Part shown: positions 33,635-56,664 of the stretch, one piece after another
Layout of the letters: each line of letters opens with the position of its first letter
Position numbering within the stretch: position 1 is the first letter of the stretch
Assembly: GCA_002495525.1 (NCBI GenBank)
Contig: DAFS01000037.1
Coordinates: 19,103 to 83,102 of the forward strand
Source: Euryarchaeota archaeon UBA89
GTDB lineage: Archaea > Thermoplasmatota > Poseidoniia > Poseidoniales > Thalassarchaeaceae
DNA: 64,000 nucleotides
Reading direction: 5' to 3'
Notes under the pieces: model-generated
Seen by the model: only the letters and a program-made list of their open reading frames with translations
The model's database searches: none
What the model was told of the DNA's origin: nothing
Program-made: the position numbers and the translations under genes

Positions 33635-35089
33635 TTATTTGTGTTTTGTACAAATATTCATAGCTTCAGAGAAGAAACTTAAACTCCATCTTCCTCCTTC
33701 TCTACCAACTCCCGAATCTTTTACTCCTCCAAATGGGACTCTTAAATCTCTATGTAGCCACGTATTAATCCAAATCATTCCTGTATGTATTGATTCTGCA
33801 ACTCTATTACCCTTTTCAAGATCATTAGTCCAAATGCTTCCTGCTAAGCCATATCTGGTATTATTAGCAATTTCAATGGCCTCCTTTTCATTAGTAAATT
33901 TATGAATAGTAACTACTGGTCCAAATATCTCTTCCGTTGAACAACGAGAATTAACATCCAAATCAGCAATTACTGTTGGAGAAATCCAATTTCCATTTTC
34001 ATATTCTTTCGAAAGATTAGGATAACCTCCGGTAAGTATCGTTCCTCCTTCTTCTTTGGCTATTTCGATATATTCTTCAATTTTTGAAAGGTGTTGGGGT
34101 GAAATCAATGCACCTAACTTTGTATTTTCGTCAGAGGGGTCCCCAATTTTCATACTTTCAACCTCTGAAATAAATTTTTCTACAAATTCTTCATATATTT
34201 TTTCTTGAACTAGGATTCTACTACCGCAAAGGCAAACCTGACCCTGATTAAGGAAACCAGATCTCACTACTCCTTTGACTGTGTTTTCAAGATCGCAATC
34301 ATCAAAAATTATACTCGCATTTTTACCCCCTAACTCTAAGCTTAATTTTTTGAAAGAACTTGCAGCCGACTTAGCAACTATGGAACCCGTTGAAGTTCCT
34401 CCAGTGAATGAAACTAAGGATACATTTTCATGCGAAACTAGTGGTGAACCGGCACCCATTCCATCTCCATGAACCAGATTAACTACTCCTTTCGGTAACC
34501 CGATTTCATCTACAGTTTTCATAAGTAAATCTGCAGTTAGGGGTGTCATTTCACTCGGCTTACAAACTACTGTATTCCCCATTCCTATTGCGGGAGCAAC
34601 TTTCCATGAAAGTAAGTAAAGTGGTAAGTTCCATGGAGTAATTAGAGCCCCTACTCCAACCGGTTTGTATATCACTCTATTAGTGGCATCTTCCATATCA
34701 AATATTTCAATATCTAGATTTCTAATCATTTCTGCAAAAAATCTAAAGTTTTTAACTGAACGATAAGCATCTACTTCTCTAGCCAAACTGATTGGTTTTC
34801 CAGTATCTTTACTCTCCAATCTCGCAATTTCTTCGTATTTGGTTTCTAATTTGTCTGCTATTTTATCTAGCCAATTTGCCCTATCTATATTTGTTAGTGA
34901 AGACCAAGATGGTAAAGCTTTCTTTGCAGCATCAACTGCCATATTTATGTCATTTTGACCTGATTTCGGTACTAATGCAATAACTTCTCCGGTAGCAGGG
35001 GAGAAATCTTCTAACCATTCCCCTGTATCTGGTTCAATAAATTTCCCAGATATATAATTCAGGAGATTCAATTCATCATCTCCTGTCAT
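33635..35089 (-). CDS. NAD(P)-dependent aldehyde dehydrogenase
   Basis: It has LELGGKNASIIF (catalytic Glu), FLNQGQVCLCGSRILV (catalytic Cys) and EEIFGPV. Confidence 0.9.
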   Translation of the reverse strand: MTGDDELNLLNYISGKFIEPDTGEWLEDFSPATGEVIALVPKSGQNDINMAVDAAKKALPSWSSLTNIDRANWLDKIADKLETKYEEIARLESKDTGKPISLAREVDAYRSVKNFRFFAEMIRNLDIEIFDMEDATNRVIYKPVGVGALITPWNLPLYLLSWKVAPAIGMGNTVVCKPSEMTPLTADLLMKTVDEIGLPKGVVNLVHGDGMGAGSPLVSHENVSLVSFTGGTSTGSIVAKSAASSFKKLSLELGGKNASIIFDDCDLENTVKGVVRSGFLNQGQVCLCGSRILVQEKIYEEFVEKFISEVESMKIGDPSDENTKLGALISPQHLSKIEEYIEIAKEEGGTILTGGYPNLSKEYENGNWISPTVIADLDVNSRCSTEEIFGPVVTIHKFTNEKEAIEIANNTRYGLAGSIWTNDLEKGNRVAESIHTGMIWINTWLHRDLRVPFGGVKDSGVGREGGRWSLSFFSEAMNICTKHK

Positions 35090-36258
35090 ATCCCTTCATT
35101 AGAAAATGGGTCTTTTCGTGTCATTGCAGCAGAGTATTCATTCCAGTCTAGGTTAAATCTATCTTGATCAGGGTCCCACTCATCCCAAGTAACTACTTTT
35201 TCTAATTTTTCCTGATAACTTTCTGGAACAATTCCTGGTACGATAAATGCTTTTTGTCTATGTAATGGGTAAGGATTTCTAAGTTCAATACCTAATACTC
35301 CCATTACAGCTCTTGCCACATACCATGTTGCCTGAGAATTCCATCCATGAGCGATTTTAATTACAATTCCTAAACCCTTTGGCCAATCTGGATGTTCGAT
35401 TGCCAGGCCTAATAATCCATCTGCTCCTTCCTTAGCAATCAATTTTCCATTTCCTGCTTTCAGGCATGTTGAATCGAGGCGATTGAATCCACCTATTAAA
35501 TCAGGATTCTTATTCATCGCTTCCCAAATCCAGTCATCATCTTTCTTTGCAACTAGTCCTGCGAACATTACTGCAAGCTCATCAACTGTGTTTGATACAG
35601 TAGGCAATCCACAACCATCTTTAGCAACTCTTTTAGGTTCCCAGTCAGGTTTATTCATGTATTCTTTTAGAACATCTAGAAATAATGGGAACCAAGGTGT
35701 ACTAGGTAGTGTATAACCTGCTCTACTCATCCCCATCTTCCGCATTCCTTTCAATAAAGCAGCATGTTCTCCTGAGCATGTATGAAACCACCTCCTTGGT
35801 CTTCTTACCTGTCTTCCAAACTGTATCAGTGGCACGTCTAAGGGGCATTGCATTAATCCCCATTCAGATTCTGTGAGTATAGATTGTGCAGCAGCGACAT
35901 GTTCAGTGTCTCCATTATGGGATGAGCAAGAAATTGCTTTCTGTTCCCATGTTAATTCGTCTTCTAGGACCTTTGCGAAGGGTTTCATCATCAATGGTTT
36001 CATCATAGATCTCCCATAAATAAGTACATTACCGCCAAAAGAGTGTATAATTTCATTTCCATGAGCCCATGCAACAGCACCATGGATTGTATTTTCAGAT
36101 ACATCCATTCTCCTAAAGTCCACTAATGGTTCCCATTCTACGTCTCTACCTGTTGCTATACCTTCATGCATCTCACCAAGAGGGTTTGTTGGAAATAATG
36201 TAGATCCGGGTCTACCAGGGGATACTGATGAAGGTCTTGAATTTTTTTCTTCTGCCAT
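35086..36258 (-). CDS. Asparaginase-II family (PF06089-like) protein
   Basis: The ordered motifs RSMMKPLM, SSHNGDTEHV, CSGEHAALL and DGCGLPT resemble the Rhizobium-type asparaginase II family. I prefer ATG 36258, which follows the upstream stop as TAAAATG, over 36294. Confidence 0.55.
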   Translation of the reverse strand: MAEEKNSRPSSVSPGRPGSTLFPTNPLGEMHEGIATGRDVEWEPLVDFRRMDVSENTIHGAVAWAHGNEIIHSFGGNVLIYGRSMMKPLMMKPFAKVLEDELTWEQKAISCSSHNGDTEHVAAAQSILTESEWGLMQCPLDVPLIQFGRQVRRPRRWFHTCSGEHAALLKGMRKMGMSRAGYTLPSTPWFPLFLDVLKEYMNKPDWEPKRVAKDGCGLPTVSNTVDELAVMFAGLVAKKDDDWIWEAMNKNPDLIGGFNRLDSTCLKAGNGKLIAKEGADGLLGLAIEHPDWPKGLGIVIKIAHGWNSQATWYVARAVMGVLGIELRNPYPLHRQKAFIVPGIVPESYQEKLEKVVTWDEWDPDQDRFNLDWNEYSAAMTRKDPFSNEGI

Positions 36259-36259
36259 T

Positions 36260-37501
36260 TTATTTCTCTCCGTTAACAATAGGTGCGACTTCATCCATAA
36301 AAGCCTTCATATTTCTTTGAACTCTTTCACTATTATGATTAAAGAAATCGAACCAACACATTAATTTATCATTTTTGTCGAATCTTTGAATTATTTGTTG
36401 GGCTACTTCTTCTACATTTCCGATTACAGCATTGTCAGACGCTCTTTCGACTTTCGATGGATCTATTGTTCCTTCCAACGCACTCCAGTATGTATTCAAT
36501 GCGGCTTTTGCTTCTTCTTTAGCAGCAATACTTTGCTCTTCAGATGAAAGTCCATCTTCATTATTGACAAATACCATTATTGTTCTAGGCATCATACTTC
36601 TATTCCATTTCCCGCCATCTACATGGTAATTTTCATCCATTCTTTCATGAGTTTCTTCAATTATATGTGGAGGGGTGATACTTAGATTAAACACTTGAAC
36701 AGGTCTCCACTTATTGACCTCAATCTGTAATTTTGGATCATGACTTCCTAGAACAAGATTTAGTAAATCTCTTCTCCAATTCTGAGGAATTGTCTTTATT
36801 TCTTCAAAATCATACCTATGTGGTATTTCGATTTTTTCAGTTACTTCGTTCTGATTACTGAACTCTTTTGCAGCAATTTGAACTTTTTCCCAATCTTCAT
36901 CTGAACGAAAATTTTCTCTTGTAAGAATAGTATCTCTAATCATATTTGAAGAAATAACTTCACCATTTAATAGTCTTAGAAAAATTTCTGACGCTTCTCC
37001 AAATATTTGTCCTCTTAGAGCAGGCCAAGCAGCTTCTTCAACTATATTTCTCGGAATTATTCCGTATGGCCTCGCCATAAATTCAAATCTTCCTGCTGAA
37101 AATCCGATATGCAATCTTCTTTCTTCTGTATCATCCATTCCATGTAATGCTAGAAATGCTCCAACACGTTCGGCAATTGCGATAGGTCCTCCAGAAGCTA
37201 GAATTGATAAAACTGCACTACCTACTTCCATCTTCTTAGTTCTGGAAAACATTTTTTGAGCAATTTGAAAGAAGTCTGTACAGAGTCCAACTTCTCCTGG
37301 GTAATGTGGCACTACTGGAGTATTATTTCTTTTTTGAATTTCAGTTGATAGATGTGCTTGTGCTACCCATCCAACCCCAAATCCTAATTCATCGGCTAAT
37401 TCAACTTGTTCAAAGAAATTAGAGAACATTTCATTTTCAGAAGGAATATATCCTGATGTATCTGGCGTCTGAGAAATTGAAAAGAATATATCGAATAACA
37501 T
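36260..37501 (-). CDS. Luciferase-like monooxygenase (LLM-class flavin-dependent oxidoreductase)
   Basis: MLFDIFFSISQ...ADELGFGVGWVAQAHLS has the LuxA-like N-terminal layout. The C-terminal GNVEEVAQQIIQRF...MCWFDF parallels the LuxA C-terminus. I take ATG 37501 as the start rather than 37537. Confidence 0.75.
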   Translation of the reverse strand: MLFDIFFSISQTPDTSGYIPSENEMFSNFFEQVELADELGFGVGWVAQAHLSTEIQKRNNTPVVPHYPGEVGLCTDFFQIAQKMFSRTKKMEVGSAVLSILASGGPIAIAERVGAFLALHGMDDTEERRLHIGFSAGRFEFMARPYGIIPRNIVEEAAWPALRGQIFGEASEIFLRLLNGEVISSNMIRDTILTRENFRSDEDWEKVQIAAKEFSNQNEVTEKIEIPHRYDFEEIKTIPQNWRRDLLNLVLGSHDPKLQIEVNKWRPVQVFNLSITPPHIIEETHERMDENYHVDGGKWNRSMMPRTIMVFVNNEDGLSSEEQSIAAKEEAKAALNTYWSALEGTIDPSKVERASDNAVIGNVEEVAQQIIQRFDKNDKLMCWFDFFNHNSERVQRNMKAFMDEVAPIVNGEK

Positions 37502-37511
37502 TATTACACAC

Positions 37512-38318
37512 TCAAATTGAACGCATTCTTCCGCCATCTACTGCTAAGCTAATTCCTCTGACAGAGCCGCTACTTGGTAAACAAAGCCATGTAACTGCTG
37601 CTCCAGTTTCTAATGGGTCGATTAGTCTCTGAATTGGTACTGAATCCATCCATTTATCTTGAACTGATTGTATTGAGCCTCCAGTCCTATCTGAAATTGA
37701 TTTGGCAAGTGATCCAAGCCTATCTGTATCTGTAAATCCTGGAAGAATATTATTTATCGTGATGCAAGGGCTCAACTCTCTTGAAAGAGATTTAGCCCAT
37801 GAACCCATGGCCCCTCTCAGTGTATTTGAGAGTCCAATGTTATCTATTGGCTCTCTTACGGATGTAGAAATAATATTTACAATTCTACCATATCCTTCAC
37901 TTTCCATAATTGGAGTCAGAATCTGAGTGATAGTATGTGCTGCATGCAGATGTCTTTTGAACGGGGCATCAAAATCATGTATTGTATTCGATAATAATGG
38001 TCCACCTGGTGGCCCTCCTGCATTGTTAACTAAAATATGTATATTTTTATTTTCAATTAATTTATTTATTTTCGATTCTAAAGTAGAAGTATCTTCTAAA
38101 TCAAGTATTAATTTTGAATGTCCACTACCATACATTTCTTCAAGTAAATCATCTAATTTATCCGAAGACCTAGCGCATACAACAACCTTTGCTCCTGCTC
38201 TCGCAAGCATTAATGAAGTAGCTCTACCTATACCTTTCGATGCACCACATACAAGTGCATTTTTACCGTTTAGTATTCCGTCTGCATAAGGAAATTCTGA
38301 GTCTAATATTTTATCCAT
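37512..38318 (-). CDS. Classical short-chain dehydrogenase/reductase (FabG-like)
   Basis: ALVCGASKGIGRA (TGxxxGxG) and NNAGG are present, and the length is 268 aa. An AGGTGA Shine-Dalgarno precedes the ATG. Confidence 0.85.
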   Translation of the reverse strand: MDKILDSEFPYADGILNGKNALVCGASKGIGRATSLMLARAGAKVVVCARSSDKLDDLLEEMYGSGHSKLILDLEDTSTLESKINKLIENKNIHILVNNAGGPPGGPLLSNTIHDFDAPFKRHLHAAHTITQILTPIMESEGYGRIVNIISTSVREPIDNIGLSNTLRGAMGSWAKSLSRELSPCITINNILPGFTDTDRLGSLAKSISDRTGGSIQSVQDKWMDSVPIQRLIDPLETGAAVTWLCLPSSGSVRGISLAVDGGRMRSI

Positions 38319-38326
38319 TTTTTCAC

Positions 38327-39073
38327 CTAATCAACGTAATGAGCATATGTTTCTTCCTCTAATTTTTGGTATACAACTTGTAATATCTCTTCCGGAGCGT
38401 TTCTAAAAGTGGGATGGGAACTATCTCCTTGAGGGCGTTTCATTTCGTCCCACCTCCCCTGTTCATATGAAATCAATGCTTCCTTCATCAAAATTCCTGC
38501 TAAAACAAGAGTTTCATAACATAAATCTTCATATTTCATTCCTCTTTTTACAGGAACTTCTCTTCGTAATAGCAATTGCCCAGTATCTACTCCGTTATCA
38601 CAGAAATGAGTAGATGAACCTATAGGTATGTCATGATATACACTCCAAGCAGGAGACGCAGAGCCTCTACATTCAGGTAATAGTCCTGGATGGCTATTTA
38701 CTACTCCATATTTTGGATAATCTAATATTTCTCCGCGAATTATTCTTGTACCACCAAAGACTATGATATCTAGATCTAATTCTCTTATATGTGGCATTAC
38801 TTCTTCTGAATTATGAATAGGCACTTCCACATGTTCAACGTCGATACCTTTCTGTGATAACTTTTCAAGTTGAATTTCAATTCTTTCTGCAATTCGATTT
38901 CCCTCTATTCTTTTCAGAAATTTTTCTCTTTCTTCATCTGCAATTGCAGAATCTTCTGTAATGATAATTTTCGGTATAAAATCTTCTGATATTAACTGTT
39001 CTAGCATTTCTCTGCCATATGGATGTTCTTTTAGAAGTAGATATGCAAAGTTCGGCTTGGGCATATTTCTCAT
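38327..39073 (-). CDS. Formyltransferase-domain protein (Fmt/PurN-like N-terminal domain)
   Basis: VVNSHPGLLPECRGSASPAWSV...GVDTGQLLL retains the Asn-His-Asp catalytic pattern of formyl_trans_N. Confidence 0.7.
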   Translation of the reverse strand: MRNMPKPNFAYLLLKEHPYGREMLEQLISEDFIPKIIITEDSAIADEEREKFLKRIEGNRIAERIEIQLEKLSQKGIDVEHVEVPIHNSEEVMPHIRELDLDIIVFGGTRIIRGEILDYPKYGVVNSHPGLLPECRGSASPAWSVYHDIPIGSSTHFCDNGVDTGQLLLRREVPVKRGMKYEDLCYETLVLAGILMKEALISYEQGRWDEMKRPQGDSSHPTFRNAPEEILQVVYQKLEEETYAHYVD

Positions 39074-48350: not shown

Positions 48351-49172
48351 ATGGTAATTCCAGCAGTAATAGCCCATGGAGGAGCTGGCCCGGGTCCCGC
48401 TCGTCAAGATAATCTTCAGGTTGCAATAAAGAAAGCTGCTGAAATTCTTATCGCAGGGGGAAGTGCATTAGATGCGGCAGTTCAGGCATGTGTAATGTTA
48501 GAAAATGATCCAGTTTTCAATGCTGGAACCGGTAGTGTAATGCGAACAGATGGATCAGTATTGACAGATGCTTCAATACAGACAGGTGATGGTAAAATAG
48601 GCTTTGTTATTGCTATGGAGAAAACTCCTAACCCGATTTTAGTTGCTGCAGATTTATTAGATGAAGAAATAAATGGCTTGACATCTGAAGGTGCTAGAAT
48701 CTGGGCGGATAATAGAGGTCATACTAAGAAAAAAGTTATCGGAGTTTCTCCAAAGGGTCAAATTGGTGATTCAGAAAAGGAAATAACCGGAGATACAGTT
48801 GGTGTGATTGCAAGAGATAGAACAGGCATGATTGTCGTCGCTACAAGTACAGGGGGTTGTAGTTTTAGACCGCCAGGGAGAGTTGGAGATGTACCATTAC
48901 CAGGGTCAGGATTTTGGGCAGAAGAAGGACTAGCAGTTGCAGCCACAGGAATAGGAGAGGCTATTACTAGAGCACTTCTAAGTAACAAGGTGTATGAAAA
49001 AATAAAGGATAAAACCTATTCTTTGGAAGAATCTATGAATTGGGGAATTAATACGCTGATATCACCTGAACATTCTGTTGGGCTAATTGCATTAGGTCCT
49101 TCTGGGCCGGGTTTAGGTGTTTCTAATACTGATATGCCATGGGCAACATGGGAACAAGAATCAACTGAATAA
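48351..49172 (+). CDS. Isoaspartyl peptidase / L-asparaginase (Ntn-hydrolase, plant-type asparaginase family)
   Basis: It has IAHGGAG, the autoprocessing/nucleophile context GDTVGVIARD, and ATGIGE. Confidence 0.85.
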   Translation: MVIPAVIAHGGAGPGPARQDNLQVAIKKAAEILIAGGSALDAAVQACVMLENDPVFNAGTGSVMRTDGSVLTDASIQTGDGKIGFVIAMEKTPNPILVAADLLDEEINGLTSEGARIWADNRGHTKKKVIGVSPKGQIGDSEKEITGDTVGVIARDRTGMIVVATSTGGCSFRPPGRVGDVPLPGSGFWAEEGLAVAATGIGEAITRALLSNKVYEKIKDKTYSLEESMNWGINTLISPEHSVGLIALGPSGPGLGVSNTDMPWATWEQESTE

Positions 49173-51555: not shown

Positions 51556-53172
51556 ATGAACCATCCTGTTAACGAACCTATCCTTGGTTATTCTCCGGGT
51601 AGCAAAGAGAGAATTGAAATTAAAGCAGAACTTGATAGGCAAATGAGTGAAGTAATAGAAATTCCTTGCATCATAAATGGTAAAGAAGTATTTACAGGAA
51701 ATATTGCAACTCAGGTAATCCCTCACAACCATAGTCACATTATTGCAAGAGTCCACATGGCTGGTAAAGATGAGATGGAAAATGCTTGCAAGGCAGCAGT
51801 TAATGCACAGCAGAATTGGATAGATATCGGTTTAGAATCTAGGTGTGAAATTTTTGAAAAGTGCGCTGATTTGCTAGCGGGAGAATGGAGGATGAGAGTA
51901 AATGCCTCTACTATGCTTAATCAATCAAAAACAGTTTTCCAGGCAGAAATAGATTCTGCTTGTGAATTAATTGATTTTTGGCGTTTCAATTGCTTCTATG
52001 CAAGAAATTTCCACGATGATTTCCAACCATTAGTATCTCCACCTGGAGTAAAAAATTCTACTGAGATTCGTCCCTTGGAAGGTTTCGTTCTTTCAATAAC
52101 TCCATTCAATTTCACAAGTATTGCTGCCAATCTCCCTAGTGCACCTGCAATTGTTGGTTGTACATCTGTTTGGAAACCAAGTAGAAATTCGTACTTGTCT
52201 AACTATGTTCTTATGCAGTTAATGATGGAAGCCGGATTGCCAGATGGCGTAATAAATTTCTTGCCAGGTTCTGGTGCAGAAATAACAGAGGTTGCTCTTG
52301 CAAATCCTGACTTTGCTGGTTTACATTTCACTGGCTCAACTGCAACTTTCCAAGGTCTATGGCAGGAAATTGGTATAGCTTTACCCAATCTCCGTTCATA
52401 TCCTCGAATTGTTGGTGAAACAGGCGGTAAAGACTTTGTTGTGGCTCATCCTAATTGTAATGAGCGTGGTTTGTTAGTTGCATTATTAAGAGGTTCATTT
52501 GAGTTCCAAGGACAGAAGTGTTCTGCAGCTAGTAGAGCATATGTACCTCAATCAGTTTGGTCATCAATTAGTGATGAATTATGTGATGAGATTAGGAAAA
52601 TAAAGATGGGAGATGCTAAAGATTTCACTAATTTTATGACTGCTGTAATTGATCAAAGATCTTTCGACAAGATTACTGGTTATATTGATAGGGCTAAGGA
52701 AGACAAATCATGTGAGGTAATTGTTGGGGGTAATTATGATGATTCAATAGGATGGTTCATTGAACCAACAATTATCGTTACATCAAATCCTAAGTCAGAG
52801 ACAATGATAGATGAGATATTTGGCCCTGTACTAACCGTCTATGTATATGATGACGATAAGTTCGATGAAGTACTAACTCTATGTGATGAATCTTCTCCAT
52901 ATGCTCTTACTGGGTCAATCTTCGCCAATGATGAATCTGATGTACAGAAAGCATTCAATGCTCTTAGATTTACAGCAGGAAATTTCTACATCAATGATAA
53001 ACCAACAGGTGCTGTAGTCGCTCAACAACCATTCGGTGGCGCTAGAGCTAGTGGTACCAATGATAAAGCAGGTGGACCATTGAACTTGTTAAGATGGATA
53101 AGTCCTCGTTCAGTTAAAAGAACATTCGAACCCCCCCAAGATTGGGATTATCAATTCATGCAATCTGAATAA
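51556..53172 (+). CDS. pruA: 1-pyrroline-5-carboxylate (L-glutamate gamma-semialdehyde) dehydrogenase, ALDH4-type
   Basis: The N-terminus NEPILGYSPGSKER...EIPCIINGKEV is typical of the long P5CDH form. The catalytic contexts GETGGKDF and FEFQGQKCSAASRAYV are present. Confidence 0.85.
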   Translation: MNHPVNEPILGYSPGSKERIEIKAELDRQMSEVIEIPCIINGKEVFTGNIATQVIPHNHSHIIARVHMAGKDEMENACKAAVNAQQNWIDIGLESRCEIFEKCADLLAGEWRMRVNASTMLNQSKTVFQAEIDSACELIDFWRFNCFYARNFHDDFQPLVSPPGVKNSTEIRPLEGFVLSITPFNFTSIAANLPSAPAIVGCTSVWKPSRNSYLSNYVLMQLMMEAGLPDGVINFLPGSGAEITEVALANPDFAGLHFTGSTATFQGLWQEIGIALPNLRSYPRIVGETGGKDFVVAHPNCNERGLLVALLRGSFEFQGQKCSAASRAYVPQSVWSSISDELCDEIRKIKMGDAKDFTNFMTAVIDQRSFDKITGYIDRAKEDKSCEVIVGGNYDDSIGWFIEPTIIVTSNPKSETMIDEIFGPVLTVYVYDDDKFDEVLTLCDESSPYALTGSIFANDESDVQKAFNALRFTAGNFYINDKPTGAVVAQQPFGGARASGTNDKAGGPLNLLRWISPRSVKRTFEPPQDWDYQFMQSE

Positions 53173-53277
53173 GTCGGCAATATATTCAATAGCCTAATCT
53201 CAGTCCTCTACTTGGGGAGCATCTGCTGAGAGGTTACGTAAGTAACGACCCTTGGACCTGATCTGGGTAATGCCAGC

Positions 53278-53282
53278 GGAGG
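53278..53282 (+). promoter_or_regulatory. Shine-Dalgarno (GGAGG) 8 nt upstream of ATG 53291
   Basis: The sequence reads GCGGAGGAAAAAAATATG. This supports the downstream start, which yields a lipobox-type signal peptide. Confidence 0.45.
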
Positions 53283-53290
53283 AAAAAAAT

Positions 53291-54376
53291 ATGTACAATA
53301 AAAAAGCAATAACAATATGCCTAATAATGATATGTTCTTTACTAACTGGATGTATAGAAGATAGAGACTCATCTGAGGATGATAAGAACTTAAGCATCGT
53401 ATCTTATGATGCATTTGGAGTTTCACAAGAACTCCTTGATCAATTTACGAACGAAACCGGAATTAGTGTCGAGATTACTAGAGCCGGAGATGCCGGTGGT
53501 GTACTATCTACAGCTATTCAAACCAAAGACTCAGGTCTTTTCGATTTAGCAATAGGAGTTGACAATTCTTATCTCGGTACTGCTTTAGCCGCAGAAATTT
53601 TTCAACCTTTAGAGACCGATCGAACGATTTTTTCCTCACGTGCTTTAAGCTCTTATGACGGTAATCTGGCTATCCCATTCGATATCGGTAGTGTGTGTAT
53701 AAATTATGACTCAAATTATGTTGATGGTGAGAATATTACTATTCCGACATCTTTATGGAATTTCACAGAGCCAGCATGGGAAGGGAAATTTGCAGTTCAA
53801 AATCCACGGACAAGTAGTCCCGGTCGTGCCTTTTTCATAGCAACTGTTGATTATTTTTCTAAGGACGAATATAATCAAACAAACTATGAAGATTGGTGGG
53901 AGTCTATGAATTCAAATGATGTGATAGTAACTGATGGATGGACAACATCCTATGAAACTCATTATTCTGGGGGGTATGGTCAATGGAGTGACGGTTTCAT
54001 TGGCGATGCACACGCAGTAGTTTCTTACTGCCATTCTCCGGGAGTAGAAGCTTACTATGGGGGGAATTGGACCACTTCCGTAGCATTGAATATTGAGGGT
54101 GCATCTTTTTCACAAATAGAATATGTATCCTTTTTATCTGGTTCTGAAAAGTCCTCATCTGCAAATATCTTTGTTAACTGGTTAGTCTCTGAAGAAATTA
54201 ATTCTCAGATGTCAACTATTAACTGGATGTATCCTGCAATTGAAGGTGGAGACATCATAGAAGATTCAGGCTATCGTTGGCATTCTGTAGTTCCTACAGA
54301 TTGTGATATAGAAATTTCTGAGATAGACTCGAATATTTCTCTATGGCTTGATGAATGGGATACCGCAATGGCTTGA
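53291..54376 (+). CDS. ABC transporter substrate-binding lipoprotein, thiamine/Fe(III) (ThiB/TbpA-AfuA) family
   Basis: The signal peptide has a lipobox (ICSLLTGC). LSIVSYDAFGVSQELLDQFTNETGISVEI resembles the TbpA N-terminus. It is the first gene of an SBP-permease-ATPase operon. Confidence 0.75.
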   Translation: MYNKKAITICLIMICSLLTGCIEDRDSSEDDKNLSIVSYDAFGVSQELLDQFTNETGISVEITRAGDAGGVLSTAIQTKDSGLFDLAIGVDNSYLGTALAAEIFQPLETDRTIFSSRALSSYDGNLAIPFDIGSVCINYDSNYVDGENITIPTSLWNFTEPAWEGKFAVQNPRTSSPGRAFFIATVDYFSKDEYNQTNYEDWWESMNSNDVIVTDGWTTSYETHYSGGYGQWSDGFIGDAHAVVSYCHSPGVEAYYGGNWTTSVALNIEGASFSQIEYVSFLSGSEKSSSANIFVNWLVSEEINSQMSTINWMYPAIEGGDIIEDSGYRWHSVVPTDCDIEISEIDSNISLWLDEWDTAMA

Positions 54377-54385
54377 GACGTTTTT

Positions 54386-56044
54386 ATGAAAATCCGTTAT
54401 CTAATAATAACTTCATGGGTTGTTTTAGTAATTTTACCCTTATTACTCGCCTGGAATCAACTTGACTCTGTTGCTGAAAGAAATATTTTCGAGACTATCC
54501 TAGATTTTAATAATAAATTTCAGACAAAAGACTCTATTTCTTTTACATTCCTAGTTGCCTTTCTATCTACAATATTGACGATAATTATTGGTTTACCCTT
54601 GGCTTGGAATCTTGGTAGATATAACTGGCCATATCATAATCTTCTAAGAAGTATTTTCACGGTCCCTTTTGTAATGCCATCGATTCTGGTTGCAATGGGT
54701 TTCTTAGCACTGTTAGATTGGATTAGTATTCTAATTGGGCATAACCATTCTAATGAAACACGTTTTTACACCCTTCTCCTAGCTCATGCTTGGTTTAATT
54801 TGGCCCTTTTGATAAGGTTCTGTGAACCTCTTCTTTCAACAATTGATTCGTCTTATGAAGAGGCATGTAGGTTGTTACCTTCTGGTAAGACGAAAATTAG
54901 TAGGCTTAGAAATTTCTGGATCCCTTTGATGTGGCCCAATATTGCTGCCTCTTCAGCCCTAGTATTCGTTTTTTCTTTTACGTCATTTGCTCTAGTTAAA
55001 TTCATTACTCCCTCAGAAAGAAATTTAGAAGTTGTAATGGCAAATCAGTCCGAGTGGGCAGGTCTGCCAATACCTTCACTGAGTCGTGCACCATCTGAGA
55101 TAGTTCTCGCATCATCTACAATTCAATTGATAACGATAATTCTGGCATTATTAGTCTCGTCATGGTTACAATCCCGGTCGTTAGGACATCATCTTTCTTC
55201 TCTTAAAGATGGAAGAATTTCTGTTTCATTCAAATCAGCACGTGGAATATATCTTATTTTAATGATAATTTTCATTATATCTCCAATGCTTTCTCTTATC
55301 TCTTCCTCATTTATGGTTAGAGAAAATGATTCGATGATTTTTTCTTTACAAGGTTGGGAATCAGCCTTTGGAGGTAGTCATTCTCCCACAAATGCCTACC
55401 AATCTCTCAAATCTTCAGTCGGGTATGCTATTATGACTATTATGCTATCACTTCCTATAGGTTTCCTACTTGCAGATACTATATTCAACCTAGAAAAAAC
55501 AAATCCTAAATCTGCGACAATTTTAGATGTTCTTGTAATGCTACCTTTAGCATTATCTGCCGTCATGGTCGGTCTTGGTGTTTTACTCGGATTAATGCGT
55601 ACAGAGCCTGAAATTGCTCGAAGTTGGTGGATTCCTCTTTATGGACATTTGATGTTAACAACTCCTTTCGTAGTCAGAGTACTTTTACCGGCTATGAGAA
55701 ATCTCAACCCCCATCTAGAAGAAGCGGCAGCATTGCTTGGCGCAAATTATCTAAAACGATTATTTTTCATACGCTTATCCCTGTTAAAACCTTCAATTAT
55801 AGTTGCCTCTAGTCTAGTATTTGCAATTTCATTGGGTGAATTTGGTGCATCTTGGGTGGTTTTGAGATTTACTGAATACACTACACTTCCTGTGATGATT
55901 GGTGATTTACTCAGTCGTCCCGGATACGACCCTATATTGAGACCCGCTGCGAATGCTGCGGGAACAATTTTGTTATTGATTACATTAGTTTTATTCATTA
56001 GTGTAGAGCGATTCAGACCAATTGGAAGTGGAGGTGAGTTTTGA
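54386..56044 (+). CDS. ABC transporter permease, duplicated 2 x 6-TM type (ThiP-like)
   Basis: The 552-aa protein has two MetI-like halves, the size and organisation of ThiP/FbpB permeases. Confidence 0.8.
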   Translation: MKIRYLIITSWVVLVILPLLLAWNQLDSVAERNIFETILDFNNKFQTKDSISFTFLVAFLSTILTIIIGLPLAWNLGRYNWPYHNLLRSIFTVPFVMPSILVAMGFLALLDWISILIGHNHSNETRFYTLLLAHAWFNLALLIRFCEPLLSTIDSSYEEACRLLPSGKTKISRLRNFWIPLMWPNIAASSALVFVFSFTSFALVKFITPSERNLEVVMANQSEWAGLPIPSLSRAPSEIVLASSTIQLITIILALLVSSWLQSRSLGHHLSSLKDGRISVSFKSARGIYLILMIIFIISPMLSLISSSFMVRENDSMIFSLQGWESAFGGSHSPTNAYQSLKSSVGYAIMTIMLSLPIGFLLADTIFNLEKTNPKSATILDVLVMLPLALSAVMVGLGVLLGLMRTEPEIARSWWIPLYGHLMLTTPFVVRVLLPAMRNLNPHLEEAAALLGANYLKRLFFIRLSLLKPSIIVASSLVFAISLGEFGASWVVLRFTEYTTLPVMIGDLLSRPGYDPILRPAANAAGTILLLITLVLFISVERFRPIGSGGEF

Positions 56045-56664
56045 TGCTATCTTGTGAAAATATTACTAAGTCGTATGATAGTTTGGTGTTATCTAACTTC
56101 AACTTAATAGTTGATAGTAATGAAATTGTAGCATTACTTGGTCCATCTGGTTCAGGTAAATCTACTCTTTTGAGAATTATCTGTGGTTTAGAGAAGAGTG
56201 ATTCAGGAAAGATATTATTCAACGGAGTAGACTTAGAAGAAATGCCTCCTGAAAAAAGAGGTATTGGAATGGTATTCCAAAACCTTGCATTATTCCCTCA
56301 CCTAAATGTACATGAAAACATTAAATTTGGCTTACCAGTAAATAATTCTATAAATAAAATTTCAGAGATACTTGAGTTAGTAGGCTTGAAAGATTTTGGT
56401 TCTAGAAAGATTCAGACTCTTTCAGGTGGCGAATCACAACGTGTGGCTCTAGCACGTTCTTTGATCGCAGAACCTAAAATGATACTTTTGGACGAACCCC
56501 TATCCAGTCTTGATTCAAGCATTAAAGAATCATTATCTTTAGAGGTCCGAAAAATGATTAAATCATTATCTATACCTGCTATATATGTGACGCATGATCC
56601 TCAAATTGCAGAAAGAATGGCTGATCGAATAGTCTACTTAGATGAAGATAACTCTAATAATTAA
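56044..56664 (+). CDS. ABC transporter ATP-binding protein, short form without a C-terminal regulatory domain (ThiQ-like)
   Basis: It has Walker A GPSGSGKST, signature LSGGESQR and Walker B ILLDEPLSSLD. The ATG overlaps the permease TGA by 1 nt. Confidence 0.9.
   Translation: MLSCENITKSYDSLVLSNFNLIVDSNEIVALLGPSGSGKSTLLRIICGLEKSDSGKILFNGVDLEEMPPEKRGIGMVFQNLALFPHLNVHENIKFGLPVNNSINKISEILELVGLKDFGSRKIQTLSGGESQRVALARSLIAEPKMILLDEPLSSLDSSIKESLSLEVRKMIKSLSIPAIYVTHDPQIAERMADRIVYLDEDNSNN

Follow-up and report, generated by a model that had tools for sequence, protein, structure and literature searches.

A 64,000-nucleotide window (contig DAFS01000037.1, positions 19,103 to 83,102 of the forward strand) from the metagenome-assembled genome (MAG) of Euryarchaeota archaeon UBA89 was analysed; this MAG belongs to the Marine Group II archaea (MGII, Poseidoniales), is 1.39 Mb in size and is 80% complete. 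The window carries a compact cluster of five genes for a formyltransferase-like protein (FT), an atypical short-chain dehydrogenase/reductase (SDR), a divergent luciferase-like monooxygenase (LLM), a class 3 asparaginase-like hydrolase (ANS2) and an aldehyde dehydrogenase (ALDH). We consider it slightly better than an even chance (probability about 0.55) that these genes form the centre of a conserved gene set for tryptophan catabolism which bypasses kynureninase, in the form carried by family f1 (Thalassarchaeaceae-like). The set would encode an undescribed tryptophan route shared by MGII archaea and many marine bacteria, in which the LLM clade would carry out a Baeyer-Villiger oxidation of (N-formyl)kynurenine, the class 3 'asparaginase' would yield aspartate and 2-aminophenol, the amn enzymes for ring cleavage would find a natural role other than the breakdown of xenobiotics and FT would replace the formamidase in MGIIb; for the route taken as a whole we put the odds at even. 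The families are labelled anonymously as f1, f2 and f3, and the equivalences of f1 with Thalassarchaeaceae/MGIIb and of f3 with Poseidoniaceae/MGIIa are ones that we infer.

The five genes form one translationally coupled operon (Table 1). A preliminary description of this DNA, made from the sequence alone, had reported five same-strand genes separated by gaps of -4 to +10 nt, and the gaps from FT to ALDH were measured as +8, +10, +1 and -4 nt. The junction strings that it gave were all found. The FT stop codon TAG is followed by GTGAAAAA (8 nt) and the ATG of SDR, with the AGGTGA motif before SDR sharing 2 nt with the stop codon; SDR and LLM are joined as TGA, 10 nt and ATG; LLM and ANS2 as TAA-A-ATG (TAAAATG); and ANS2 and ALDH by an ATGA overlap at 35086-35089. 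The start assigned to LLM is the ATG giving MLFDIFF, 10 nt past the SDR stop, and the longest open reading frame (ORF) opens at 37537. The motifs named in that description were likewise present, namely the Asn-His-Asp pattern of FT (NSHPG...DTG; N126, H128, D163), the catalytic Glu and Cys of ALDH (E252, C286) and, in LLM, WVAQAHLS at the position of the luciferase EHHF. The packing of the five genes is not due to chance, since their order and adjacency recur across the Poseidoniales and at dozens of loci in bacteria.

Table 1. Genes of the operon, in order of transcription; positions are those of the window.
Gene	Product type	Positions	Strand	Length (aa)
FT	formyltransferase-like	38327-39073	-	248
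SDR	atypical SDR	37512-38318	-	268
LLM	divergent luciferase-like monooxygenase (group C flavin)	36260-37501	-	413
ANS2	PF06089 class 3 asparaginase-like Ser-Lys hydrolase	35086-36258	-	390
ALDH	2-aminomuconate/2-hydroxymuconate 6-semialdehyde dehydrogenase type	33635-35089	-	484

Conservation of the gene neighbourhood, which had been proposed as a check, was observed both in the Poseidoniales and in bacterial loci. LLM was detected in 38 of 41 Poseidoniales genomes at 63-94% identity, and the order SDR-LLM-ANS2-ALDH recurs there. The three genomes in which LLM and ANS2 were missed are one that is only 52% complete and two in which a contig breaks off within or next to the flanking genes, so that the apparent absence coincides with contig ends or with an incomplete genome. 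Of ten loci from other genera and families, nine had LLM, ANS2 and ALDH side by side, with SDR either adjacent or parted by a TPR gene; at the tenth locus (L022) the two genes downstream of LLM were not found though the contig runs on for about 9 kb beyond LLM. When species-representative genomes were scanned, 80 loci with 56-69% LLM identity were obtained, approximately 49 of them from bacterial MAGs labelled, as deposited, Planctomycetota, Myxococcota, 'Deltaproteobacteria' and others. Archaea share the gene order with several phyla of bacteria, at 50-72% identity, and the linkage and co-occurrence of these genes are established.

Clustering of the neighbouring ORFs identified the gene upstream of SDR in many bacterial loci as tryptophan 2,3-dioxygenase (TDO; PF03301, 202 bits), and the full order TDO-SDR-LLM-ANS2-ALDH-AmnB-AmnA-RidA-KynB, with the cyclase type of KynB (PF04199) that is found in the bacteria, is seen for example at loci L096, L083 and L069. 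Counted over assessable bacterial loci, the partners were present as follows: TDO in 18 of 41, SDR in 37 of 46, ANS2 in 42 of 47, ALDH in 39 of 42, AmnB in 29 of 39, RidA in 23 of 35 and KynB in 25 of 35. The corresponding archaeal counts were 20/26 for AmnB, 17/20 for RidA, 0/18 for KynB and 2/21 for TDO. AmnB-AmnA-RidA lies directly downstream of ALDH in relatives, and at two archaeal loci (L024, L034) TDO stands divergent beside FT, and FT is followed by SDR-LLM-ANS2-ALDH-AmnB-AmnA-RidA in a row. AmnB, AmnA, an AmnC-type ALDH and a Rid deaminase, the combination by which an amn pathway is recognized, are encoded together in these relatives.

Some loci depart from this arrangement in other ways. 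One MGIIb lineage has a gene for a TPR protein of about 279 aa between SDR and LLM (L053:364-1203; also L041, L043, L045-L050, L056, L059, L075); at the same place in family f3 there is a distant TPR gene (28-29% identity), joined at some f3 loci by an endonuclease/exonuclease/phosphatase-family gene, and the operon of the window is without the TPR insertion. Locus L072, from a record titled Thermoplasmata archaeon nzgw66, has the bacterial-type order SDR-LLM-ANS2-ALDH-AmnB-AmnA-RidA-KynB, and its LLM branches beside the archaeal group but in neither MGII clade, which points to a binning error or an independent transfer.

The partner genes were also located in the cluster's own genome. TDO (212 bits) is on contig C37, and a search for LigB-type dioxygenases found AmnB-AmnA-RidA as an overlapping trio (LigB, LigB, Rid-family) on contig C58. 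AmnB matched the beta subunit of 2-amino-5-chlorophenol/2-aminophenol 1,6-dioxygenase (3vsg_B) at 356 bits and E 1e-105, and AmnA matched the alpha subunit (3vsg_A) at E 1e-40; the 2-aminomuconate deaminase that is known belongs to the Rid/YjgF proteins. In genomes of the window's genus (G007, G010) LLM and AmnB are 116-119 kb apart on single contigs, so the split is genuine and no assembly artefact. Among the 41 related genomes TDO was present in 40 and AmnB in all, and kynureninase (TIGR01814) was absent, no genome scoring over the cut-off (best 29.3 against 246.4 bits). A search of the cluster's genome for 3-HAO gave no match, a weak negative given that the control matched nowhere.

Several observations were made around these partner genes. 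The Rid-family ORF on C58 (L106:3863-4564) overlaps the AmnA stop by 4 nt and encodes 233 aa, with the Rid domain at residues 106-232; the extra 100 residues may come from a misassigned start or may genuinely extend the N terminus. Matches to AmnB with in-frame stops were seen at G024:C5:39075-40013 (one TGA and one TAG) and G017:C42:4200-4970 (one TAA), and these are either sequencing errors or decaying copies. On C37, TDO is followed by a thiolase gene (PF00108/PF02803; L103:2621-3781), which could matter if the pathway ends in acetyl-CoA via 2-oxoadipate and glutaryl-CoA. A few kb from AmnB-AmnA-RidA on C58 there is a gene for an amino-acid permease with C-terminal EF-hand pairs (L106:5653-7332; also L027:13059-14732); many MGII loci have such a gene downstream of the operon, and the permease is a candidate substrate importer, EF-hands being unusual on a prokaryotic permease.

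The ALDH is, on its sequence, of the 2-aminomuconate-semialdehyde dehydrogenase (AMSDH) type and would act after ring cleavage. It matched PF00171 at 564 bits, and the top of its 44 NCBIfam matches was TIGR03216 at 560 bits, short of the cut-off of 693. The best PDB matches, seven at E<=1e-130 and 450-455 bits, were all AMSDH. In an alignment to 4i1w, E252, C286, R110 and R447 of the ALDH correspond to Glu268, Cys302, Arg120 and Arg464 of AMSDH, of which Arg120 and Arg464 are known to bind the carboxylate and 2-amino group of the substrate.

Conservation within the set is highest for ANS2 (74-86% identity within the Poseidoniales, 65-72% to bacteria), which matched PF06089 at 152 bits and the class 3 L-asparaginase ReAV of Rhizobium etli at E 2.5e-13; no NCBIfam model matched. 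Its family assignment and active-site residues are established: S84, K87, S113 and K276 correspond to Ser48, Lys51, Ser80 and Lys263 of ReAV, so that both Ser-Lys tandems are present, and C161, H165 and C216 correspond to Cys135, His139 and Cys189. The ReAV-type asparaginase with its Ser-Lys tandems forms a beta-aspartyl acyl-enzyme in which Ser is the nucleophile. ANS2 thus shares with ReAV and ReAIV the PF06089 domain, the Ser-Lys tandems, both Cys residues and His139, but the aligned cores are only distantly alike, and ANS2 is extended at both its N and C termini and encoded in an aromatic catabolic operon. From this operon context the substrate would be a beta-aspartyl aryl compound rather than free L-asparagine, and ANS2 is a candidate for the hydrolase that releases L-aspartate and 2-aminophenol. 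A gene for an Ntn-type asparaginase/isoaspartyl peptidase (PF01112, 178 bits) is present in the window at 48351-49172 (+), directly after an MFS transporter gene, which gives the genome a candidate for an ordinary asparaginase in addition to ANS2; given this gene and the cross-domain synteny of ANS2, a role of ANS2 as the housekeeping asparaginase was considered unlikely.

LLM is the most divergent member of the operon. It reached 27.1-27.3 bits against a PF00296 cut-off of 27.9, although all 11 family representatives matched (best E 2.5e-15), and no match to PDB sequences was obtained at E<=1. The family is small, with 321 representatives among 1.84 billion proteins. The AF2 model of LLM (pLDDT 86.3) has the luciferase-type (beta/alpha)8 TIM barrel, and Foldseek returned a probability of 1.00 to 2i7g, 7bip, 1luc, 8cbb, SsuD, Mer and 3,6-diketocamphane monooxygenase (3,6-DKCMO), with RslO1 also among the matches; the type II Baeyer-Villiger structures 5aec and 4uwm ranked 26 and 34, a likeness at the level of the fold. 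LLM resembles the type II, FMN-dependent two-component Baeyer-Villiger enzymes and luciferase in its barrel (TM up to 0.76 to LuxA), in having 3,6-diketocamphane monooxygenase among its Foldseek matches and in keeping the His of the EHHF region (H50, invariant in alignment A1). It differs from them in its sequence (11-16% identity), in forming a small family of its own and in its length with insertions. Archaeal and bacterial LLM proteins share 57-69% identity, and in a FastTree tree the archaeal sequences are nested in the bacterial diversity, with the root and support values uncertain so that no direction of transfer was inferred. We regard LLM as a candidate Baeyer-Villiger oxygenase acting on (N-formyl)kynurenine, an activity taken from the logic of the pathway and consistent with the modelled fold.

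The route proposed from these assignments would begin with the oxidation of Trp to N-formylkynurenine by TDO. The formyl group would then be removed by FT, possibly onto tetrahydrofolate; its position before oxygenation, like the substrates and chemistry of LLM, ANS2, FT and SDR, is what we infer from context. LLM would insert oxygen between the aryl ring and the side-chain ketone to give the beta-aspartyl 2-aminophenyl ester, which an O-to-N acyl shift could turn into the anilide N4-(2-hydroxyphenyl)asparagine, and ANS2 would hydrolyse either the ester or the anilide to L-aspartate and 2-aminophenol. An AmnBA-type dioxygenase would open the ring to 2-aminomuconate 6-semialdehyde, the ALDH of the cluster would oxidize this to 2-aminomuconate and a Rid-family deaminase would free ammonia. 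The Tyr-less SDR would either reduce the resulting enoate towards 2-oxoadipate or supply reduced flavin to LLM. LLM and ANS2 are placed as the bridge from kynurenine to 2-aminophenol because they are, together with SDR, the only unassigned catalysts that always accompany the set. Their proposed mechanism draws on the established chemistry of oxygen insertion into an aryl ketone followed by hydrolysis, the LLM superfamily holding type II Baeyer-Villiger enzymes, and ANS2 would fit either product since both are beta-aspartyl derivatives and carry the type of bond that is attacked by the Ser of a class 3 asparaginase. This idea of Baeyer-Villiger oxidation and hydrolysis was framed before the AmnBA genes turned up, and finding them bore out a prediction.

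The preliminary description had stated that no described pathway combines these five activities, and in the literature searched none was found. A kynureninase-free route to aspartate and 2-aminophenol was likewise not found in that literature, the coverage of which was incomplete, so that this means 'not found' and not 'nonexistent'. The genes do co-occur in related genomes, and neither LLM nor ANS2 belongs to an already assigned pathway. The earlier suggestion of an N-formyl or amide substrate and of a stepwise oxidation ending at the ALDH fits the proposed route; an alkyl-derived aldehyde does not, the ALDH being of the AMSDH type and acting after ring cleavage. The genes had also been seen as a self-contained module for a marine organic compound, and they are instead the centre of a larger conserved tryptophan/kynurenine gene set. 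The role of an ordinary dehydrogenase, given there to SDR, has become unlikely with the catalytic Tyr missing.

The part of FT is best seen by comparing lineages. An FT orthologue was present at all 25 assessable MGIIb-type (archaeal) loci and at none of 40 bacterial loci; it occurs in families f1 and f2 and was not found in five f3 genomes, each at least 93% complete. At all five f3 loci a gene for an alpha/beta-hydrolase stands directly upstream of SDR. The formamidase slot is thus occupied by three unrelated families according to lineage, KynB in bacteria, the alpha/beta-hydrolase in f3 and FT in f1/f2, and the cluster's own genome gave no match to a KynB-like (cyclase-type) protein or to the f3-type hydrolase. 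FT matched PF00551 at 47.9 bits (Pfam cut-off 26.1) and retains the catalytic triad and the folate loop HPGLLPECRG intact. It scored under the equivalog cut-offs for Fmt (45.9 against 201.5), PurN (38.2 against 150.1) and ArnA (29 against 777), and its top PDB match was the hydrolase domain of 10-formyl-tetrahydrofolate dehydrogenase. A second Formyl_trans_N gene in the same genome, PurN-like at 181.6 bits, is on contig C39, and this separate gene rules out FT as the cell's PurN.

The simplest reading of the FT sequence and its distribution is that a folate-type enzyme has replaced the formamidase by non-orthologous displacement. FT would then be an extra paralogue and a candidate for the enzyme, whether deformylase or transformylase, that takes off the N-formyl group arising from the TDO reaction. 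That it hands the formyl group of N-formylkynurenine to tetrahydrofolate rather than losing formate is doubtful in our estimate, though such a transformylation would be chemically reasonable, if speculative, since the folate loop and triad are intact and N10 of tetrahydrofolate is itself an aryl amine.

SDR matched PF13561/PF00106 at E 1e-31 and keeps GASKGIG, NNAGG and S153, but it departs from the classical Ser-Tyr-Lys set, with S164-N165-x-x-R168 in place of YxxxK; this substitution is kept across 64 orthologues. A look-up in the protein atlas gave generic SDR clusters only. With its catalytic Tyr lost, SDR is unlikely to be an ordinary alcohol/ketone oxidoreductase, and two other roles appear about equally likely from its sequence and context. 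It may be an ene-reductase taking 2-aminomuconate/4-oxalocrotonate towards 2-oxoadipate, in an operon that has no decarboxylase, hydratase and aldolase branch, or it may be an NAD(P)H:flavin reductase serving LLM, with which it shares translational coupling and which it adjoins at all 29 archaeal loci and at 37 of 46 bacterial loci. A reading in terms of C1/methylene-pterin chemistry was rejected: the THF_DHG_CYH_C match of SDR reflects only the Rossmann fold (25.6 bits, under the cut-off), and the Mer-like matches of LLM are generic to the fold.

A number of points weigh against the tryptophan route as proposed. TDO and AmnB-AmnA-RidA are unlinked to the five genes in the cluster's genome. 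The divergence of LLM is so great that its fold matches carry no information on the substrate, and to our knowledge Baeyer-Villiger chemistry on the aryl ketone of an amino acid has not been shown for an LLM. In ANS2, E164 replaces the zinc ligand Lys138 of ReAV, so that the zinc site Cys135-Lys138-Cys189 is incomplete; zinc is not required for catalysis by ReAV. The f3 alpha/beta-hydrolase matched kynurenine formamidase only weakly in the PDB search (E 0.003). None of 4-oxalocrotonate decarboxylase, hydratase, aldolase and acetaldehyde dehydrogenase is among the conserved neighbours of the locus, and PF01557, the sole meta-pathway family searched genome-wide, gave one gene in an unrelated place of this 80% complete genome. 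Finally, canonical flavin reductase families are encoded elsewhere in these genomes, so that SDR need not be the reductase of LLM.

The same genes could also be read as a pathway in which hydroxylation comes first. LLM would be an analogue of kynurenine 3-monooxygenase (KMO) and form 3-hydroxykynurenine, itself an o-aminophenol, whose ring AmnBA would cleave directly, and ANS2 would then hydrolyse the acyl (C-C) bond in the opened product to give aspartate and the 2-aminomuconate semialdehyde on which ALDH acts. Such a scheme would account for an aspartate-releasing hydrolase, an AMSDH-type ALDH and the absence of kynureninase, and gene order does not discriminate between it and the Baeyer-Villiger route. 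We nevertheless think it unlikely, as group C flavin monooxygenases are known for Baeyer-Villiger, desulfonation and alkane/C-N chemistry and not for arene hydroxylation, enzymes of the Ser-Lys class 3 asparaginase fold are not known to hydrolyse C-C bonds, and AmnB is close, by its match to 3vsg_B, to enzymes for small 2-aminophenols.

It is quite unlikely, in our view, that the module serves some other o-aminophenyl or N-acyl-aminophenol compound of seawater (exogenous kynurenine-like metabolites, N-acyl-2-aminophenols or aryl amides), with the linkage to TDO being secondary. TDO is adjacent at fewer than half of the assessable bacterial loci and at two archaeal ones, is unlinked in the cluster's genome, and amino-acid permease genes that are not obviously specific for Trp lie near many archaeal loci. 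Yet nearly every genome of the order encodes TDO, and the presence beside the module of a formamidase-type gene, drawn from one of three unrelated families, is sensible only with an N-formyl aryl amine, the product of TDO, as an intermediate. A Rut-like pathway, in which LLM would open a pyrimidine or amide ring, an amidohydrolase would follow and SDR and ALDH would act on malonic semialdehyde, was dropped because TDO and AmnBA are linked to the set. That the genes have separate housekeeping functions and are chance neighbours in a compact genome (ANS2 a general asparaginase, FT a purine/tRNA formyltransferase, LLM and SDR unrelated oxidoreductases) is very improbable even though every member comes from a large and functionally diverse superfamily, being contradicted by the synteny between archaea and bacteria, the separate PurN-like gene, the Ntn-type asparaginase in the window and the translational coupling.

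The Baeyer-Villiger route proposed here can be set beside three known systems. With 2-aminophenol meta-cleavage, encoded by the amn genes of Pseudomonas sp. AP-3 and Burkholderia xenovorans LB400 and by the cnb/nbz genes of nitroarene degraders, it shares a two-subunit LigB-type 2-aminophenol 1,6-dioxygenase, an AMSDH-type ALDH with both substrate arginines and a Rid/YjgF-family deaminase. Here, however, genes for TDO, a formamidase-type protein, LLM, a PF06089 hydrolase and the Tyr-less SDR accompany the module, its carriers are marine heterotrophs and not pollutant degraders, and in the cluster's genome ALDH stands apart from AmnBA. The canonical kynurenine pathway (TDO, KynB, KMO, kynureninase, 3-HAO, ACMSD, AMSDH) likewise starts with TDO, includes an AMSDH-type ALDH step and has the same start and end metabolites, whereas here the ring would be cleaved by LigB-type AmnBA and not by the cupin 3-HAO, and the predicted side-chain product is aspartate and not alanine. 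The 4-hydroxyacetophenone pathway of Pseudomonas fluorescens ACB, encoded by the hap genes, comprises a Baeyer-Villiger monooxygenase, an aryl esterase, a two-subunit ring dioxygenase, a semialdehyde dehydrogenase and a reductase. It is alike by analogy only, in that oxygen is inserted, the ester is hydrolysed to a phenol and the ring is cleaved before an ALDH and then a reductase act; HAPMO is a type I FAD/NADPH enzyme and not an LLM, the esterase is unrelated to PF06089 and the substrate is no amino acid.

The window contains a second ALDH gene at 51556-53172 (+), which encodes 538 aa (PF00171, 320 bits) and lies upstream of an ABC set of substrate-binding protein, permease and ATPase (53252-56664).

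In the surface ocean, Marine Group II archaea rank with the most abundant heterotrophs, and proteins are their main food. We know of no account of how they dispose of tryptophan. If the proposed route is true, these archaea would carry out part of central amino-acid catabolism by chemistry that is not in the textbooks, with kynurenine converted to aspartate and 2-aminophenol, and two unassigned enzyme families would gain their first physiological functions. The genes would also be candidates for long-missing activities, a side-chain cleavage independent of kynureninase and possibly a 2-aminomuconate/4-oxalocrotonate reductase. The exchange of a formamidase for a formyltransferase, if true, would be a new means of conserving a one-carbon unit, and the route as a whole would explain the spread of 'pollutant' 2-aminophenol cleavage genes in pristine oceans.

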